Positions 5,821 through 12,089 of a stretch of 64,000 nucleotides of DNA are shown here, one piece after another. The position numbers were made by a program, and so were the translations under genes. The stretch is from positions 2,464,001 to 2,528,000 of the forward strand of contig CBDBDQ010000005.1 in NCBI GenBank assembly GCA_965203905.1, in the 5' to 3' direction. This DNA is from Spirochaetia bacterium (lineage in GTDB: Bacteria; Spirochaetota; Spirochaetia; SZUA-6; Bin103). The notes beneath the pieces were generated by a model. It did no database searches. It worked only from the letters and a program-made list of their open reading frames with translations, and was not told the origin of the DNA. The number at the start of each line of letters is the position of its first letter. Position 1 is the stretch's first letter.

Positions 5821-7494
5821 GTGAGCGACACGCTGGTCCGCCTCGTGCGCGAGGCGGTGCAACAGGAGGTGGAGGTGCCGCTGTCCAGACCACCGGACAG
5901 CGCCATGGGCGACTACGCGGTGCCCTGCTTCCGGCTGGCCCGCGAGGTGGGCACGCCCCCGGTGCCGCTGGCGCAACAGATCCGCGACCACCTCCGGCAG
6001 CGCGACCTGGCGGCGTTGGGCATCGCCGGGGTCGAGGCACACGGACCCTACCTGAACGTATTTCTGGCCAAGGGCGACCTGGCGGAGCGGGTGATCGGCG
6101 AAATCCTCGAGGCGGGCGCCGGCTACGGAGCACGTGGCACCGGACTCGGCAAGCGTGCGCTGGTGGAACACACCAGCATAAATCCCAACGCGCCGCCGCA
6201 CCTGGGCCGCGCCCGCAACGCCTGGATCGGCGACACCCTGGTACGCCTGCTGCGCTTCGAGGGGTACGCCCTGGAGGCACGCTTCTTCGTCAACGACGTG
6301 GGCCGCCAGATCGCGCTGCTGGTCCTCGGGGTCGGCGACCGCCGTCCCGACTTCCACGAGTTGTTGGAGATCTACGTTGCAACCAACCGGCGCCTGGAGC
6401 AGGACGCGGGGCTGGAACGCGAAGTGAACCTGCTGCTGGAACGGCTGGAGAGCGGCGACCCGGAGCCCCGCGCCGCCTTTCGGCGCGTGGTCGAGATCTC
6501 CGTGCACGGCATGCGCGAGCTGTTCGGTGACGCGGGCGTGCGCTACGACCGCTTCGACTACGAGTCGGACTACCTGACGCCGGAGCGCCACCGGCAGATC
6601 GTGGACGAGCTACGGGCCACCGGCAAGCTGTTCGAGGACGAGCACGGCCGGCTGGTGCTCGACCTGGAGGGCTTCAGGCTGCCCTCACGCAACCCGGTGC
6701 TGGTGATCACCCGCGGCAACAAGACCTCGCTCTACGTGCTGCGCGACATCGCCTACACCCTGGACAAGATGGCCGCCGCCTCCGATCTCAACCTGGTGGT
6801 GCTGGGCGAAGACCAGAAACTGTATCACCGGCAACTCCAGGCAGCCCTCAAGCTGCTGGGATCGGCTGCCCCCGACCCGGTGCATTACAGCTTCGTGCTG
6901 TTGGGCAAGGGCTCGATGTCCACCCGCCAGGGCAACCTCGTGCTGTTGGAAGAGTTCGTTGCCGAGGCCAAGCGCAAGGCCAGCGCCGAGTTGGGCGCGC
7001 GCGGCCATGCGGACGACCCCGCGGTGGCGCGGGCGGTGGCGTACAGCGCGCTGAAGTATTCGTTCCTGAAGGTCGCCAACGACAAGCAGGTGCTGTTCGA
7101 CTGGGACAAGGCCATGGCCTTCGAGGGAGAGAGCGGCCCCTACCTGCTCTACAGCCACGCCCGCATCTGCTCCATTCTGCGCAAGTACGGCAAGCCGCTC
7201 CCCGCCACCGCGGAGTTCGCCGTGCTGGAGGCCGGCGAGGAATCGGAGTTGCTGAAGCTGCTGGCGGAGTTGCCGGATCAGGTCGCGCGCGCGCTGCGGG
7301 TGCGCAGCCCGCACGTGATCGCCGGGTACACCTTTGCCGTGGCGCGGCAGTGCTCCACCTTCTATCATGCCTGCCCGATCCTGCAGGCGGCCTCTCCGTT
7401 GCGCGAGGCGCGGTTGCTGCTGGCGGCGGCGACGCGTCAGGTGCTGGCCAACTGCCTCGGCCTGATGGGAATCGACGCGCTGGAGCAGATGTAG
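5821..7494 (+). CDS. argS: arginine--tRNA ligase
   Basis: VEHTSINPN..HLGRARN (HIGH), MSTRQG (KMSKS-like), GESGPYLLYSHARICSI, DALR domain; GTG start with GGAGA RBS. Confidence 0.96.
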   Translation: MSDTLVRLVREAVQQEVEVPLSRPPDSAMGDYAVPCFRLAREVGTPPVPLAQQIRDHLRQRDLAALGIAGVEAHGPYLNVFLAKGDLAERVIGEILEAGAGYGARGTGLGKRALVEHTSINPNAPPHLGRARNAWIGDTLVRLLRFEGYALEARFFVNDVGRQIALLVLGVGDRRPDFHELLEIYVATNRRLEQDAGLEREVNLLLERLESGDPEPRAAFRRVVEISVHGMRELFGDAGVRYDRFDYESDYLTPERHRQIVDELRATGKLFEDEHGRLVLDLEGFRLPSRNPVLVITRGNKTSLYVLRDIAYTLDKMAAASDLNLVVLGEDQKLYHRQLQAALKLLGSAAPDPVHYSFVLLGKGSMSTRQGNLVLLEEFVAEAKRKASAELGARGHADDPAVARAVAYSALKYSFLKVANDKQVLFDWDKAMAFEGESGPYLLYSHARICSILRKYGKPLPATAEFAVLEAGEESELLKLLAELPDQVARALRVRSPHVIAGYTFAVARQCSTFYHACPILQAASPLREARLLLAAATRQVLANCLGLMGIDALEQM

Positions 7495-7517
7495 GCGGAA
7501 CTGGTCGGCGAATTCGA

Positions 7518-7601
7518 TGCCGGCGCTCGGACTCGAACCGAGACGGTGTTGCCACCACCAGATTTTGAGTCTGGCATGTCTACCAATTTCATCACACCGG
7601 C
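7518..7601 (-). tRNA. tRNA-Leu(CAA), CCA not encoded
   Basis: Reverse complement GCCGGTGTGATGAAATTGGTAGACATGCCAGACTCAAAATCTGGTGGTGGCAACACCGTCTCGGTTCGAGTCCGAGCGCCGGCA folds as a cloverleaf with a long variable arm and anticodon CAA. Confidence 0.97.
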
Positions 7602-7616
7602 TTGGTAGGCCGTTCA

Positions 7617-7646
7617 ACACTAAGGATTCCTTGGGCCTCCTGTCAA
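7617..7646 (-). promoter_or_regulatory. candidate sigma70 promoter of tRNA-Leu
   Basis: Minus strand TTGACA-N18-TAGTGT, about 15 nt upstream of the tRNA 5' end. Confidence 0.55.
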
Positions 7647-7782
7647 TTGGTGGCAGGTCGATCAGGTCGATCGATGCAGCGATTCCCGATGAACGCCCGC
7701 TGGTAGCGCCCCTTGTCTGATAGGTGGAGATGGGCTGATAGGCTGAGATTGGCGTGAGTGCGGGCTCGTGTGCAATGCGGGA

Positions 7783-8295
7783 CTACCGGCTTGGCCTAAC
7801 GAGATGATCCAACCGATTGGAGACCTCGTGTTGAGGCAGGAAGACCGTGGCGTCGTCTTGCCAGGTCTTTAGCGCATGGATCAGCAGCGATCTGGCGCAG
7901 CCTCCGGCTGCGGCCAGTTCGTCGACGATCCAAAGCACACCGTGCACGCGCAGGCCGCTGTCGGTAGCGACCCTACGGAGCAGAGCGTCGCCGGTTAGCA
8001 GGATGCCGCACTGAGTGAGTGCCGTGACGATGCATAGGCTATCGTTGGCGGAAAGGGCGGGATGTCGCTGTTTGAGTGCGAGGGCTTGAGCGACTTCGTC
8101 TGGTGCCAAGTCGTGAGTGATCATCCCGGCATCGTCGAGCTGTCGCCACTGCCCATAGGAGAAATCAAGGATTTCGGACTCCCGCACAGGCAGCGGGACG
8201 ACGAACCGGTACGGCAGATTGCAGAGCACTTCCAGTAGACCTCCTTTGCGGAGGTCGATGAGGCAGGAAGCGTCGTTGACGACGACGCGCGTCAT
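7783..8295 (-). CDS. PIN-domain (VapC/DUF3368-like) putative ribonuclease
   Basis: VVVNDASCLIDL, ESE, LSAND, LLTGDALLR acidic PIN pattern; ATGA overlap with the upstream gene. Confidence 0.85.
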   Translation of the reverse strand: MTRVVVNDASCLIDLRKGGLLEVLCNLPYRFVVPLPVRESEILDFSYGQWRQLDDAGMITHDLAPDEVAQALALKQRHPALSANDSLCIVTALTQCGILLTGDALLRRVATDSGLRVHGVLWIVDELAAAGGCARSLLIHALKTWQDDATVFLPQHEVSNRLDHLVRPSR

Positions 8296-9371
8296 TCAGT
8301 CGTCGGACCGCTGATTTCTCGCTCGACGGAGTCGAGGGTCTGGTTGAGAAGCGCAGCGGCACGCACGGGCGAGATCAGCCCTTCGCCAACGGCGCGTGCG
8401 ACCAAGCGCTTGAAACGTCGGGGCTTTTCGAAGGCCGCGAACCCGTGGTCGGGGCGGATAGGTTCGGGTTCCGTCTTGCGCCAGGGGCGCGCGAAAGTCG
8501 CGAATGCCTGCTGGACGGTGGCAGGAGGCAGGACACCGACCTGCCCGAGGCGCATCAGCATGGTCGCCGCCGACACGCCGTAGGTGTGCTTGAGCCGGAT
8601 AGTCTCGTAGTAGGTAATGCGGCGACGGGCGGCACCGACTTCCCCCAGGAGACGCTGACGTGGAACGAGAAAGGCACCAGCGAAGCGATTCATCGCCGTC
8701 TCAAGCGTTATTGCCGGGTTGCCGGTGGAGCGGATGACCCTGTGTGCGAGCTCGTGGGCAAGGGTGAAGCGTTTGCGCTCGACATTGATCCGGTTCGAGA
8801 CGACGACCGCCTCGGCGACCGACCTGCCACCCCGGAGCACGTGGCACGCCAAGCCATTGATGCTCTCGGGAAGATCATCCACGACTACCTTGATGCCCTT
8901 GTCTTCAAGGAGTTCGCACAGGCTGGGAATGGGATCCATGCCAAGACTCCATGCGTCGCGGAGCTCGTCGGCTTTGTTGTCGATCTGTACTTCAGCCGCG
9001 ACGCTGTCGCAGCGGCGACCCTCGGCCCAATCGACGGTTGCCGGCATGTCGAGGATGTCCTCGATTGCCAGGTAACGCTCGAGGTTGTCTATCAAGATCG
9101 CCTCGGCCTTCGCCCGGTCGCGAGCAGAGGCTTTGGAATGCTTGCGAAACTCCAGCCCGTCGAGGGTCTCGACCTGCGCGCTCATAAGGAAGTCCAGTGA
9201 CACGTTGAGGGTCTTTCCGAGCGCGACCAGCACGGCCGACGAGGGCAGCATCTTGCCTGCCTCATATTTGCTGATGGCCTGAGCCGTGACCCTTGGGGTC
9301 ATCTGCTCTGCGAGTGACCGCATGGATAAACCGGCCCGTCTGCGGGCGAGCCGGAGTCGTTGTCCAAACAT
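8292..9371 (-). CDS. XRE-family HTH fused to ImmA/IrrE (DUF955) Zn metallopeptidase
   Basis: FGQRLRLARRRAGLS...ISKYEAGK HTH; ERKRFTLAHELAH (HExxH); ETAMNRFAGAFLVP. Confidence 0.93.
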   Translation of the reverse strand: MFGQRLRLARRRAGLSMRSLAEQMTPRVTAQAISKYEAGKMLPSSAVLVALGKTLNVSLDFLMSAQVETLDGLEFRKHSKASARDRAKAEAILIDNLERYLAIEDILDMPATVDWAEGRRCDSVAAEVQIDNKADELRDAWSLGMDPIPSLCELLEDKGIKVVVDDLPESINGLACHVLRGGRSVAEAVVVSNRINVERKRFTLAHELAHRVIRSTGNPAITLETAMNRFAGAFLVPRQRLLGEVGAARRRITYYETIRLKHTYGVSAATMLMRLGQVGVLPPATVQQAFATFARPWRKTEPEPIRPDHGFAAFEKPRRFKRLVARAVGEGLISPVRAAALLNQTLDSVEREISGPTTE

Positions 9372-9384
9372 GCGCTACCCTCCG

Positions 9385-9535
9385 TCATTCCCCTGAATGA
9401 TAACCTTACAGGATGGACGTTGAATAGATCGTTGCAAAGTAAGGACTTATGTTCGTATCGATCGCAGACGGAACGGGACACGCGAAGCTTGGTTGACAGA
9501 TCATTGAGATATAATGATATTGTAAACCTAAGGTT
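9385..9535. promoter_or_regulatory. divergent promoter/operator region
   Basis: AT-rich; TTGACA 9493-9498, TATAAT 9510-9515, TGaTATTGT 9515-9523; two TCATT-N6/7-AATGATA inverted repeats. Confidence 0.5.
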
Positions 9536-9620
9536 GATGCAACGCGCCAGCGCCGATAGCTGAGGCCTCGTATATGGACGTGGTGTGTCGGATAGGAGAC
9601 GAGAGTCGGAGGAGACTGGA

Positions 9621-9863
9621 GTGGTTACGTACGAATTCAAGGTGAACGGTGAGACGTTATTCTCAGATCAGCAGGCGGTGGACGCAGCGGTGCTGTTGCG
9701 AACCGCGTTCGCCGGCAAGGCTATTGGTGAGGATCCGGACAAGACCGGGTATGTGCTGAGGGTGCCCAACTCGGACGTGACGTTTGTGTCGGGGGAAGTG
9801 GTGGAACTCGACAAGTACAACGTATTTCGAGCGGTCCCGAAGAAGGGTGCACCGTTCGCATGA
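9621..9863 (+). CDS. small ubiquitin-like (multi-ubiquitin/beta-grasp) protein, about 80 aa (alternative start 9585)
   Basis: YEFKVNG...A..LL...YVL...GEVVELD...FRAVP fits the multi-ubiquitin domain pattern; GGAGGAG RBS before GTG 9621; first gene of the E2/JAB-E1 operon. Confidence 0.7.
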   Translation: MVTYEFKVNGETLFSDQQAVDAAVLLRTAFAGKAIGEDPDKTGYVLRVPNSDVTFVSGEVVELDKYNVFRAVPKKGAPFA

Positions 9864-10285
9864 GCAGGAACTCGGTGCGGATGGCCGCTGAACTCGTTGA
9901 ATTGGGCTATCGCCCAAGTCCGTTCACGGCGCCTCAGGAACAGGGCGGAGCCGATGGAGTCAGGTTCGAGTACCGGATCGAGAATGGCAGTCGCGAAAAA
10001 GACACCGTGACCTTGGCGGTGGCCGTCCACGAAGACGAAGGGGAGTGGCCCGAAGTGGCACCGCACTGGGTGTACCTGTCGCCGCCGGATGATGTTCTGG
10101 CGCAGCAGGTGAAGGGGGCGCAGCCACCGGGAGTTGTCGCGAAACACGAATGCGAGAACGGTCAGGTATGGATGGCGATCAGCGCCCCGCCGAGCGACTT
10201 TTGGGACCAAATCGACGCACAGGACGGCAAGAACATGAGGACCTATCTAAACAGCCACATCCGAAGAATCTGGAGCATGCGTTGA
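9860..10285 (+). CDS. prokaryotic E2/UBC-like protein
   Basis: FEYRI..G....V.LA...WPEVAPHWVYL.P (E2 YP..PP-like), W.AIS...FW, C-terminal helix YLNSHIRRIW; ATGA and TTGA overlaps with neighbours. Confidence 0.65.
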   Translation: MSRNSVRMAAELVELGYRPSPFTAPQEQGGADGVRFEYRIENGSREKDTVTLAVAVHEDEGEWPEVAPHWVYLSPPDDVLAQQVKGAQPPGVVAKHECENGQVWMAISAPPSDFWDQIDAQDGKNMRTYLNSHIRRIWSMR

Positions 10286-11781
10286 AGCATCGAGTTGTTC
10301 TGCGAGAAGTGCTCCATCGTCAACTCGCGGAGCACCTGCTTAGCCGTTTCCAGGACGGGGGACGCCAGGAGGAGGCTTGCTTGGCGCTGTGGCGGCGGGG
10401 GGACGGGTTCAACCGCTATACGGGGATTCTGTGCGAAGTCGTCCTGCCGGACGACGGTGATCGAGATCTGCACGGCAATGTCACGGTGCACGGAGGATAT
10501 TTGAACCGCGTTTTGGATCGCGCGCTCATGGCGAAGGCGGGGGTGGCGGTGCTTCACAGCCATCCTGGGCCTGGCTGGCAGGGGCTGAGCACCATGGACG
10601 ACGATACCGAGCGCAACATCATTGTGCCATTCATTCGAGAGACGGGGTTGCCGCTGCTCGGACTGACAATCGGCTCAGACGGTGTTTGGAGCGCTCGATT
10701 CTGGCAAGAGTCGCGACGTGGCCGCGTTGCGCCCGTGCAATGCACAGACGTGCGGCGGGTCGGGCCGCGCCACACTGGATCGGATTGGCCTCCTGACGGG
10801 CACCAACCGTACGCGCGCCGTCCAAGCTTGGTGCGGACAGTTGACAGTTGGGGGCTGGATGCGCAGGAAAGACTGGCTCGGACGCGCATCTGTGTGGTAG
10901 GCGCGGGGAGTGTCGGCTCGATCTTGCTCGAGTGCCTGGCGCGCACTGGTTTTGAGGAGATCACGATCATTGACCCTGACTCTGTCGAGGAAAGGAACCT
11001 GGATCGTCTGATCTACGCGGACCGACACTGCCTGGGTCTGCGTAAGGCGGAGGTGGCGGCGGCCTATGCGCGCAGGGTCGCCACCGCGCGCCGTCCAGTC
11101 ATTCGGCCCGTTCCATTGTCGATCCGCACAGAGAAAGCGTACCGGTTGGCGGCCGACGCCGACGTCATCGTCTGCTGTGTCGACAACGCGGAGGCGCGCG
11201 AGGTCTTGAATCACATCGCTTACGCGAACTGCCTTCCATTACTCGATGGCGGGGTTCTGGTGGAGTCGAGAGAGCGTCTACTGTCGGCGAAGTGGTCCGT
11301 TCATCTGGTTGGACCTGACATGCGTTGCCTGCGTTGCCGCGGTCAATACACAAGCAGTGATGCACGAGACGAGCGGTTGGGTATCAGGCGCGGTGGACGA
11401 TACGTCAACGATGGCGTTGAGGACGGTCCGGAGCCCGGCCAGAACACGATCTCTTTCTGCAACGTCGTGGCAGCCGAGGAGACAAGGATGCTTGTGCGTT
11501 ACTTGATCGGGGAGGATTGGTGGCACGACAGTGCCGCTACTGCCGGTCAGTGGTCGTTCGAACACCGGTTCGTAGAAGCAGAAACCGAGCCGTTTGAGCA
11601 TCCGGGCAGATGCGTCGAGAGCTGCGAGTTTGCACATATGCGCCTCGGACTCGGCGAGAGTGGGCGACCGAAGTACCCGTTCGCCGACGAGACATTAGAA
11701 GACTGGCGCAGGCGTGTGATGCGCTGGTACCGGCACGTTCGTATGAAGGTGGGCCGTGCGGTTGCAGGAGTATGCGCTTGA
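10282..11781 (+). CDS. JAB/MPN metallopeptidase - ThiF/E1 adenylyltransferase fusion (499 aa)
   Basis: TTG start overlapping the E2 stop, GGAG RBS; QEE...HSHPGPGWQGLSTMD (JAB); VVGAGSVGS, IIDPDSVEERNLDR, CCVDNAEAR, CLRC...CVESC (E1). Confidence 0.9.
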   Translation: MKHRVVLREVLHRQLAEHLLSRFQDGGRQEEACLALWRRGDGFNRYTGILCEVVLPDDGDRDLHGNVTVHGGYLNRVLDRALMAKAGVAVLHSHPGPGWQGLSTMDDDTERNIIVPFIRETGLPLLGLTIGSDGVWSARFWQESRRGRVAPVQCTDVRRVGPRHTGSDWPPDGHQPYARRPSLVRTVDSWGLDAQERLARTRICVVGAGSVGSILLECLARTGFEEITIIDPDSVEERNLDRLIYADRHCLGLRKAEVAAAYARRVATARRPVIRPVPLSIRTEKAYRLAADADVIVCCVDNAEAREVLNHIAYANCLPLLDGGVLVESRERLLSAKWSVHLVGPDMRCLRCRGQYTSSDARDERLGIRRGGRYVNDGVEDGPEPGQNTISFCNVVAAEETRMLVRYLIGEDWWHDSAATAGQWSFEHRFVEAETEPFEHPGRCVESCEFAHMRLGLGESGRPKYPFADETLEDWRRRVMRWYRHVRMKVGRAVAGVCA

Positions 11782-12089
11782 CCGTGTGCCATGCTGCGGC
11801 GCGCCGCAGCTGCGCGTTCGTAGCTGCGGAAGCAGCGCTCATCCGTGGCATCGGGGATGGACGGAGTTCTACCGGGTTTTCACGGAGAGTGACACAGCGC
11901 GATGCGCAGTCCGGTGGTGTCGGCGACGTCACCGCGGCCCTAAGGCGTACCTCAAGCGCATCCCAGCGCCGCCGTATGCGCTCGTCGAACAACCGGATCC
12001 GGCTCAGACTATGGTCTTGACCGCTTCGGACCAGAATAACTCTTATCAGAGAGACCGTGCGGGCAGCCGGCCGAACCTGGATCGGGGCG

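Follow-up and report, generated by a model that had tools for sequence, protein, structure and literature searches.

We describe here a putative protein-conjugation operon in a 64,000-nucleotide stretch of the genome of a Spirochaetia bacterium (assembly GCA_965203905.1, contig CBDBDQ010000005.1, positions 2,464,001 to 2,528,000 of the forward strand; hereafter the window). The operon encodes a ubiquitin-like beta-grasp protein (Ubl), an E2-like protein and a JAB peptidase fused to a ThiF-type E1 enzyme. It appears to be a relative of the bacterial Bub conjugation systems that has no BubE, and sequence comparison, structure prediction and analogy with CBASS (cyclic oligonucleotide-based antiphage signalling systems) together make it probable that the reactive C-terminus of its modifier is Ala80 and not a glycine. 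This reading is based on the position at which conservation ends in the homologs, the terminal alanine of wider relatives, the length of the tail, a model of the Ubl bound to the JAB-E1 protein, and the precedent of an alanine-ending E1 substrate in CBASS. To our knowledge, a C-terminal glycine has been treated as a near-universal requirement of ubiquitin-type modifiers, E1 enzymes and their proteases.

The Ubl and its encoded C-terminus

The Ubl gene is preceded by GGAGGAG (9607–9613), 8 nt upstream of the GTG at 9621, and its 3' end reads ...GTC CCG AAG AAG GGT GCA CCG TTC GCA TGA, that is, ...VPKKGAPFA-stop (translation MVTYEFKVNG...FRAVPKKGAPFA). The first-pass annotation, made from the letters of the window, had noted that the stop follows GAPFA, that there is no GG or terminal Gly, and that the last Gly, Gly76, is the fifth residue from the end; the translation bears this out. 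A longer open reading frame of 92 aa, from a GTG at 9585, is unlikely, since 116 of 120 listed homologs are exactly 80 aa long with an equivalent Met start. The stop codon shares the ATGA at 9860–9863 with the ATG of the E2-like gene.

In its AlphaFold2 model (mean predicted local distance difference test score, pLDDT, 80.8) the Ubl is a beta-grasp protein whose last strand covers residues 68–73 (DSSP) and is followed by a seven-residue tail. The top Foldseek matches of the model are the multi-ubiquitin proteins 8u38 (E = 5.2e-4), 9cd2 and 9d5b and residues 155–229 of Citrobacter BubA (9ea8_B), and ubiquitin itself ranks below these. The sequence had no match in Pfam (E ≤ 0.1), NCBIfam or the hidden Markov models of PADLOC, PF14452 (Multiubiquitin) included, and a search of PDB sequences with the Ubl profile returned rows at chance level only. 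Because the fold is nearest to multi-ubiquitin structures and the window-type Ubls are homologous by hhalign to the actinobacterial Ubls described below, many of which are flagged as PF14452 (E = 9e-6, probability 83%), the window Ubl is classified here, by comparison, as a divergent relative of the PF14452 proteins.

Conservation of the tail in close homologs

A word-index search with the Ubl found 217 homologs at E ≤ 0.01, and the tail statistics cover the 120 of these that were listed. GAPFA forms the C-terminal end of all 120. When the window gene was compared with those of 16 loci from other genomes, the five tail residues were identical in all 17 sequences, and the codons differed synonymously (GGT, GGG, GGC or GGA for Gly; GCA or GCG for Ala77; CCG, CCA or CCC for Pro; TTC or TTT for Phe). 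Because the residues are identical despite these synonymous changes, the alignments indicate that selection acts on the protein tail, and an error or a private mutation is excluded.

An exhaustive search of representative sequences without a length filter found 33 representatives, 14 of which were fetched. Eight of the relatives (about 40–60% identity; P0123, P0124, P0146, P0155, P0159, P0162, P0169 and P0172) read GAPF, then A, S or T, and then continue into unrelated extensions of two to eight residues (AA, SI, QESRPNV, IDLIDV, MGLLDV, KGSDHFDA, KENSSDV and KKSDLDA). Conservation in these extended forms breaks off after position 80, not after Gly76, and by sequence they present the classical picture of pro-modifiers with a boundary after position 80. 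None of the fetched Ubl relatives ends at the position of Gly76. A di-domain form, P0154, carries KGAPFA on its last domain only, and in P0147 (...KGPTPVA) and P0153 (...NQSTPVA) Pro-Val-Ala is kept and the Gly register is lost.

The same search contained no genuine fusion of Ubl and E2. One metagenomic protein of 203 aa (P0134) joins the Ubl to the E2-like frame because the Ubl gene is frameshifted close to its end; its sequence suggests a gene that is broken or misread in sequencing, and not a natural fusion of the BubAB type. Fusion of the two products by frameshift or read-through was also considered, Type I Bub having them fused, and rejected for the window, because the ATGA or GTGA overlap is ordinary in 17 of 17 sequences and because the two genes lie 10 and 47 nt apart in two actinobacterial loci.

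Val-Ala relatives in Actinobacteria

Homologs of the JAB-E1 protein (about 35% identical over 75–91% of its length) are encoded on actinobacterial plasmids in the same gene order, with an ImmA/IrrE or HigA-like regulator, a 'multiubiquitin domain-containing protein', a hypothetical E2-like protein and ThiF. Such operons are recorded, annotated and apparently uncharacterised, from Nocardioides, Rhodococcus, Mycobacteroides, Mycobacterium avium, Clavibacter and Pseudarthrobacter. The Ubl ends in Val-Ala in all eight actinobacterial loci (RTCAPVA, HIGGVA, QAGPVA, QSAQVA, RVGGVA, QRADVA, HVGGVA and QSAPVA), and in half of them the last seven residues contain no Gly. A profile built from these eight Ubls found 934 database proteins. 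The endings were scored for the best 120 of the 934, and 110 of these end in Val-Ala, with 28 having no Gly among the last seven residues. Three proteins of this clade among the best 120 (P0264, P0277 and P0284) end in ...AGPVQ or ...AGPVE.

In the wider relatives that keep the terminal hydrophobic-Ala, the Gly76 position is taken by Cys, Ile, Pro, Ser, Ala or Gln. In the alignment of homolog C-termini, which the first-pass annotation had proposed as a check, Gly76 is kept in the close clade, and the terminal hydrophobic-Ala is kept far more widely. As judged from these alignments, the tail type of the clade is a conserved (small)-Pro-hydrophobic-Ala-COOH. The idea that the terminal Ala is forced by the overlap with the E2 gene was rejected in view of the two actinobacterial loci in which the genes are separated.

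The actinobacterial operons resemble that of the window in that their E2-like proteins share a WP..PPHW motif with the window protein (hhalign E = 4.2e-6), their Ubls end in hydrophobic-Ala, and no DUF6527 gene is annotated nearby. They differ in having Val-Ala instead of Phe-Ala, one or two beta-grasp domains, shorter E2-like proteins (109–125 aa) with an H-S-R motif, and many Ubls that are detected by PF14452, as the window Ubl is not. In a quick tree of 29 JAB-E1 sequences, 15 from Phe-Ala and eight from Val-Ala operons form one clade (SH-aLRT, the Shimodaira-Hasegawa-like approximate likelihood ratio test, 97), and five Gly-type Bub sequences fall outside it; its long branches and the lack of a real root speak against leaning on this tree for the alanine reading. 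A similar archaeal trio was seen on a Halorussus plasmid (L029, 1598–4126), with a Ubl of 90 aa ending in ...FFRIVPKGSGRS, a middle protein of 163 aa with a PHW motif, and a JAB-E1 protein of 588 aa, whose long branch places it between the Gly-type and the Ala-type groups. No DUF6527 gene is annotated near this trio.

The JAB-E1 and E2-like proteins

The first-pass annotation of the third gene as an E1/ThiF enzyme fused to a JAB peptidase agrees with the database matches. The ThiF domain (PF00899) is recognized by Pfam with E = 1.7e-35 (122.8 bits, against a cut-off of 28.1), and the best match among PDB sequences by phmmer is Citrobacter BubCD (9ea4; E = 1.5e-22), which covers residues 3–328 and hence both domains. 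The PADLOC models of Cap2 (E1-E2) also match the E1 domain (E = 1.7e-15), and the Pfam JAB models gave no match to the N-terminal part. The JAMM residues E30, H92, H94 and D106 align with E28, H91, H93 and D104 of BubCD; among 15 sequences these four are invariant and S103 is nearly so, and the E1 motifs G207–G212, N239–R242 and D301 are invariant as well. Tyr374 in the crossover loop is conserved in 15 of 15; the actinobacterial relatives have a Tyr at the aligned position, and that of a Bradyrhizobium Bub E1 is nearby. The stretch between C352 and N388 contains no Cys.

The 141-aa protein has no match in Pfam, NCBIfam or PADLOC, only chance-level rows in the PDB sequence search and, with its AlphaFold2 model (mean pLDDT 85.3), nothing in Foldseek at E ≤ 0.001. 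In VIA-align the top match of the model is Citrobacter BubB (9eav_D; Z = 8.1, root-mean-square deviation 3.8, 117 aligned residues). Most of the top 50 rows are E2, UEV (ubiquitin E2 variant), Atg3/Atg10 or Cap2 E2-domain chains with Z between 4 and 7.9, and a Z under 8 taken alone can reflect a common arrangement. On the strength of the model, the protein is assigned the ubiquitin-conjugating (UBC) fold.

Its only Cys (C98) is replaced by Gly in two of 17 homologs, and the usual E2 pattern of a catalytic Cys after an HPN-like motif is absent. His69, Asp77 and Ser108 are invariant among the 17. In a weak hhalign alignment (E = 0.0019, probability 15%), Ser108 faces the WSRH Ser of a Rhizobium 'E2/UBC family protein', and His69 faces the Asp in its APDMFY; according to the Citrobacter sequence and the Bub preprint (10.1101/2024.11.21.623953), these two residues correspond to the catalytic Ser333 and Asp299 of BubB. 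The position of BubB His335 is occupied by Pro110, and that of Asp299 by His69, in the same weak alignment. MAFFT paired the actinobacterial H-S-R motif with KHEC of the window protein; the profile alignment was preferred to this pairing, though both are uncertain.

A model of the complex and the length of the tail

Full-length JAB-E1 was modelled together with ATP and the Ubl. The complex scored 0.73, against 0.00 for the best of three controls, with runs agreeing in at least 95% of contacts and a partner pLDDT of at least 84. The score mark is reached by 116 of 157 solved complexes and two of 215 mismatched pairs, counts that serve only as a rough benchmark here, since own alignments and a riding ATP were used; solved JAMM-ubiquitin complexes exist, and likeness to them may drive the pass. 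In the model the Ubl sits on the JAB domain with residues 75–80 in a groove, Gly76 to Pro78 pair with residues 67–69, and Phe79 touches the zinc ligands H92 and D106 as well as residue 32. Residues 79–80, and not Gly76, lie at the zinc centre. This modelled geometry is what would be expected if the bond after Ala80, rather than the Gly76-Ala77 bond, faced the metal; the model supports, rather than demonstrates, binding. The first-pass annotation had suggested modelling the complex in order to see which residue reaches the ATP site of the E1; the model places the tail at the zinc of the JAB domain and not at that site.

The length of the tail points in the same direction. In five canonical Bub Ubls encoded on plasmids, six to eight residues separate the core of the last strand from the Gly (Citrobacter ...RLTPKDVNNG|EESP, Robbsia ...RLMQRNVDNG|EAPL, Pseudosulfitobacter ...FFTVIEQTTAG|DASS, Rhizobium ...FFTGKKTTTEG-stop and Bradyrhizobium ...FFAVPPATFG+HGNH). 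In the window Ubl the corresponding distance is eight residues to Ala80 and four to Gly76, and in the Val-Ala clade it is seven.

An E1 substrate with a similar terminus is known from Type II CBASS. The first-pass annotation had mentioned that the nucleotidyltransferases of these systems (CD-NTases) can be conjugated through Gly or Ala, and in Enterobacter cloacae the CD-NTase does end in Ala (...GRFA); its residues 370–381 (...KTGRFA) were crystallised AMP-linked in the E1 site of Cap2, and Cap3 cuts directly after the last CD-NTase residue (10.1101/2022.03.31.486616). Because Cap2 and Cap3 act on this terminus, as that source describes, a pair of E1 and JAB enzymes can handle Phe-Ala-COOH.

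Weighing the reactive residue

The first-pass annotation had left two possibilities, namely that the JAB domain cuts KKG/APFA or that the family activates a non-glycine terminus. The second is now the better supported, by conservation, the extended forms, the complex model and the length of the tail, and the first is disfavoured. Several observations nevertheless weigh against Ala80 and are the reason why we call it probable and no more. Gly76 is invariant in the close GAPFA clade (120 of 120 listed), in relatives of that clade at 56–60% identity and in all eight extended forms, and this invariance would also fit a cleavage site with conserved P1'–P4' residues. In ubiquitin, Gly76 lies four residues past the last strand, and Gly76 of the Ubl, three residues past a strand that ends at residue 73 (DSSP on the model), is close to this. 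The characterised beta-grasp modifiers BubA (Gly229; 10.1101/2024.11.21.623953) and BilA (Gly97; 10.1101/2023.09.26.559546) use Gly. The residue that reaches the ATP site is not revealed by the complex model, because the Ubl was docked on the JAB domain instead of the E1. Among the best 120 of the 934 profile matches, three end in Val-Glu or Val-Gln, and seven, which are three-domain forms, end in ATGKS. Five of the eight extensions (P0155, P0159, P0162, P0169 and P0172) end in Asp-Val or Asp-Ala, and such tails may be more than disposable pro-peptides. In addition, the lowest-error pairs listed for the model have Phe79, and not Ala80, next to the zinc ligands, and the mapping of the E2 active site comes from the profile alignment of 15% probability.

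The invariance of Gly76 and its distance from the strand are also the points that favour an unlikely alternative, in which the Ubl is a pro-protein: the fused JAB would cut between Gly76 and Ala77 and remove APFA, and Gly76 would be adenylated as in Bub (after Gly229) and Bil (Gly97). APFA would then be a prime-side recognition element or the remnant of a former Ubl-E2 linker. The JAB active site is indeed intact and invariant, the JAB of BubCD cleaves after a conserved Gly (10.1101/2024.11.21.623953), and Ala98 of BilA is removable (10.1101/2023.09.26.559546). Against it stand the variation at the Gly76 position in wider relatives that retain the terminal hydrophobic-Ala, the finding that no fetched homolog ends at Gly, a four-residue tail to Gly76 that is shorter than in all five canonical Bub Ubls examined, and the complex model, which puts residues 79–80 rather than 76–77 at the zinc ligands.

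Of comparably low probability, in our estimate, is that the Ubl is never conjugated. The tail would dock in the JAB or E1 site, plug it and regulate the two enzymes, or the protein would be an adaptor or sensor. It speaks for such a role that the only confident predicted interface is the JAB groove, that the E2-like protein has neither a canonical Cys nor the Ser-x-His of BubB, and that Iyer et al. (2006) note prokaryotic beta-grasp families without a conserved terminal Gly. However, the E1 motifs, the crossover Tyr and the E2 fold are kept at 70–80% identity across phyla, and without catalysis this would be difficult to account for; a free C-terminal residue that is strictly conserved, with extensions that start exactly after it, is a hallmark of an activated terminus; and the homologous Bub system does conjugate (10.1101/2024.11.21.623953).

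A sulfur carrier of the ThiS/MoaD type, in which the acyl-adenylate is turned into a thiocarboxylate, is very improbable: the E1 domain matches ThiF/MoeB models in NCBIfam, but all far below their cut-offs, there is no rhodanese, sulfurtransferase or biosynthetic neighbour, the partners are an E2-like protein and a JAB domain in an island with a defence-type regulator, and BubCD rather than ThiF is the closest solved relative. That the gene is a Gly-ending one damaged by mutation, truncation or misassembly, which the first-pass annotation had allowed for if all homologs ended in Gly, is refuted by the same GAPFA ending in the 120 listed homologs and in 16 independent genome loci.

If Ala80 is the reactive residue, the system may work as follows. 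A helix-turn-helix (HTH) protein with an M78 peptidase domain, of RmrA/capP/capH-like type and encoded next to the operon, would repress it until a stress signal arrives. The E1 domain would bind the beta-grasp and adenylate the carboxylate of Ala80, and the Ubl would be carried as an oxyester by the crossover-loop Tyr374 and then by Ser108 of the E2 (possibly with His69), as in Bub, before being joined to a target amine. The fused JAB would read the same tail with Ala80 at P1; it would trim the extended relatives and, no BubE being present, may also remove conjugates.

In a bolder form, to which we would give about an even chance, the whole Ala-ending clade, that is, the GAPFA group found in metagenome-assembled genomes (MAGs) of many phyla together with the Val-Ala plasmid group, with hundreds of members, would be conjugated through a C-terminal Ala. 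The E1, the JAB and a Cys-less E2 would be co-adapted to a Pro/Gly-hydrophobic-Ala-COOH tail, and BubE would be absent. It would be in effect a third Bub type and the first beta-grasp family without a terminal Gly, converging on the ...FA of CBASS.

Comparison with Bub, CBASS and Bil systems

Type I Bub (6E.1) consists of BubAB, BubCD and BubE, and 'all Bub operons possess bubE' in the words of Ye, Gong, Chambers and Corbett (10.1101/2024.11.21.623953). As described in the same preprint, the JAB cuts BubAB after the conserved Gly229, transfer proceeds through oxyesters on E1 Tyr370 and E2 Ser333, 31% of the operons adjoin CapH and CapP regulators, islands at tRNA genes are common, and no protection against phages is reported so far. 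The window operon shares with it the JAB-E1 fusion with the same domain order, a crossover-loop Tyr without a loop Cys, a UBC-fold E2 closest to BubB, a modifier of the multi-ubiquitin beta-grasp type, a nearby regulator with HTH and ImmA/CapP-type domains, and an island at a tRNA gene. It is a Bub relative that, by analogy, very probably works like Bub.

It differs in several respects. The Ubl and the E2 are encoded by separate genes instead of a BubAB fusion released by the JAB; the Ubl ends in Phe-Ala where the Bub Ubl has a conserved Gly; His69 and Pro110 stand, in the weak alignment, at the Asp299 and His335 positions of BubB; and the JAB-E1 protein falls in a separate clade of the tree. 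The operon also has no DUF6527/BubE gene, and DUF6527 (PF20137) had no match in the whole genome (98.71% complete, 7.9% contamination), whereas control genomes gave a match. Because its Ubl and E2 genes are separate, DUF6527 is missing and a conserved Gly does not run through the family, the sequences place the operon outside Type I Bub as defined. Bradyrhizobium and Rhizobium, too, have operons with separate Ubl and E2 genes, and these operons contain DUF6527. In one of these, a canonical Bub operon with split genes on a Bradyrhizobium plasmid (L021, 5310–6914), a 'phosphotransferase' gene lies between JAB-E1 and DUF6527; it may be connected with the CapK/CapS kinase regulators, in whose paper Bub operons are mentioned.

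Likeness to Type II CBASS is limited to the E1 domain and the terminus, in that an E1 adenylates a non-Gly end there (...TGRFA-COOH in the CD-NTase, ...KGAPFA-COOH in the window Ubl). The CBASS substrate, as described in the source cited above, is a nucleotidyltransferase with a disordered tail and not a beta-grasp protein, and its E2 and E1 are fused and Cys-based; the window cassette has no CD-NTase gene, its E2 is separate, and its JAB is fused to the E1. Type II Bil resembles the window system in that its modifier is a bacterial beta-grasp protein that can be encoded with Ala at the end, and in having a JAB in the operon. In BilA, however, the Gly is universally conserved and the residues after it are not, Ala98 blocking conjugation until it is removed (10.1101/2023.09.26.559546), whereas in the window family the Ala and the residues preceding it are conserved.

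Prokaryotic beta-grasp families without a conserved terminal Gly were noted by Iyer et al. (2006). A Ubl family with a conserved terminal Ala was not found in full-text searches of the literature, which did not cover the supplementary operon tables (Table S1) of the Bub preprints, where members might be listed; the one terminal Ala that they brought up is the removable Ala98 of BilA. Judged from the sequences, what appears to be new here is a Bub-related system in which BubE is missing, the active-site pattern of the E2 is altered and the modifier terminates in Ala.

Genomic context and distribution

The operon lies in a block of lower GC content (about 0.61 over 7400–11800, against 0.66–0.73 in the flanks), together with a divergently transcribed regulator and a PIN-like gene (Table 1). 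Neither att-like direct repeats around the island nor, within the 7400–11800 block, an integrase was found; the repeats seen are two-copy families of 17–27 nt with 70–82% identity. The gene downstream of JAB-E1 encodes an amino-acid kinase on the opposite strand. The intergenic region holds one weak palindrome and one sigma-70-like site (9493–9521), which is no more than chance (shuffle mean 0.8). Terminator-like sites were not found.

Table 1. Features of the cassette and its left border in the window.
Feature	Position	Strand	Remarks
tRNA-Leu (anticodon CAA)	7518..7601	-	ARAGORN; left edge of the lower-GC island
PIN-like protein, 170 aa	7783..8295	-	start lies within the end of the HTH-M78 gene; matches Pfam PIN slightly below the cut-off (E = 1.2e-4)
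HTH (XRE) + M78/ImmA-IrrE metallopeptidase fusion, 359 aa	8292..9371	-	divergent from the Ubl operon; likely repressor or sensor
Divergent intergenic region	9372..9620	.	GC 0.53; holds GGAGGAG
Ubiquitin-like beta-grasp protein (Ubl), 80 aa	9621..9863	+	GTG start; ends GAPFA, then stop
Codons of the tail Gly76-Ala77-Pro78-Phe79-Ala80	9846..9860	+	proposed reactive C-terminus at Ala80
E2-like (UBC-fold) protein, 141 aa	9860..10285	+	start shares ATGA with the Ubl stop; Ser108, together with His69, as catalytic candidate
JAB/JAMM peptidase (about residues 1–165) fused to ThiF-type E1 (about 185–499), 499 aa	10282..11781	+	TTG start; TTGA overlap with the E2 stop

The regulator is recognized by Pfam as HTH_3 (E = 2e-10) and Peptidase_M78 (E = 1.3e-13), by PADLOC as RmrA (E = 4.7e-44, the best), capP (E = 1.2e-10) and capH (E = 1.5e-6), and by NCBIfam as an spr1629-like repressor/antitoxin (E = 2.5e-23, below the cut-off). 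Both an HTH and an M78 domain, the components of CapH/CapP-type regulators, are present, but they are fused in one protein. The PIN-like protein matches PDC-S70 of PADLOC (E = 1.6e-6). A small toxin-like gene always accompanies that of the regulator; it is PIN-like in the window and RelE/ParE or hypothetical on the Rhodococcus and Clavibacter plasmids, and a 358-aa HTH-M78 protein is annotated as 'HigA family antitoxin' on those plasmids (L023, L032, L024 and L022). This arrangement may mean that a toxin-antitoxin-like module doubles as the switch of the operon.

Genomes scanned with the E1 fusion yielded 18 loci (L001–L018), which come from MAGs labelled as Binatia, Acidobacteriota, Thermodesulfobacteriota, Alpha- and Gammaproteobacteria and others. 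The Ubl, E2-like and JAB-E1 genes occur in the same order in 16 of the 18, with 66–87% amino acid identity; the HTH-M78 gene is present in 17, and the PIN-like gene in 15, two of the three misses being at contig ends. The Ubl and E2 genes overlap by ATGA or GTGA in the window, as they do in all 16 loci that hold both genes, and the TTGA/GTGA junction of the E2 and JAB-E1 genes recurs as well. Because these stop/start overlaps recur in related loci, the three genes look translationally coupled.

The identity of 66–87% between proteins from MAGs of different phyla and the lower-GC block beside tRNA-Leu point to a recent horizontal spread of the five-gene cassette (PIN-like, HTH-M78, Ubl, E2-like and JAB-E1). 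Its sequences also reveal decay in some genomes, since two loci hold only remnants: one (L013, 4682–7176) is without the Ubl gene, the E2-like gene and the first 107 residues of JAB-E1, and the other (L016, 6001–6865) has only the C-terminal part of the E1, frameshifted.

Significance

If the Phe-Ala/Val-Ala family does work in this way, a terminal Gly would be a habit of lineages and not a chemical necessity of ubiquitin-type modification. The Gly-type Bub systems and their Ala-type relatives would then provide a comparison set for how E1 and JAB enzymes read the last residue, and searches for prokaryotic Ubls that filter on a terminal Gly would miss such families. A type that has no BubE would be added to the known Bub-like systems, with a bearing on the roles of BubE and of the fused JAB. 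Trypsin should leave a GAPFA remnant (+443.22 Da) on modified proteins, which would make the discovery of the targets straightforward.

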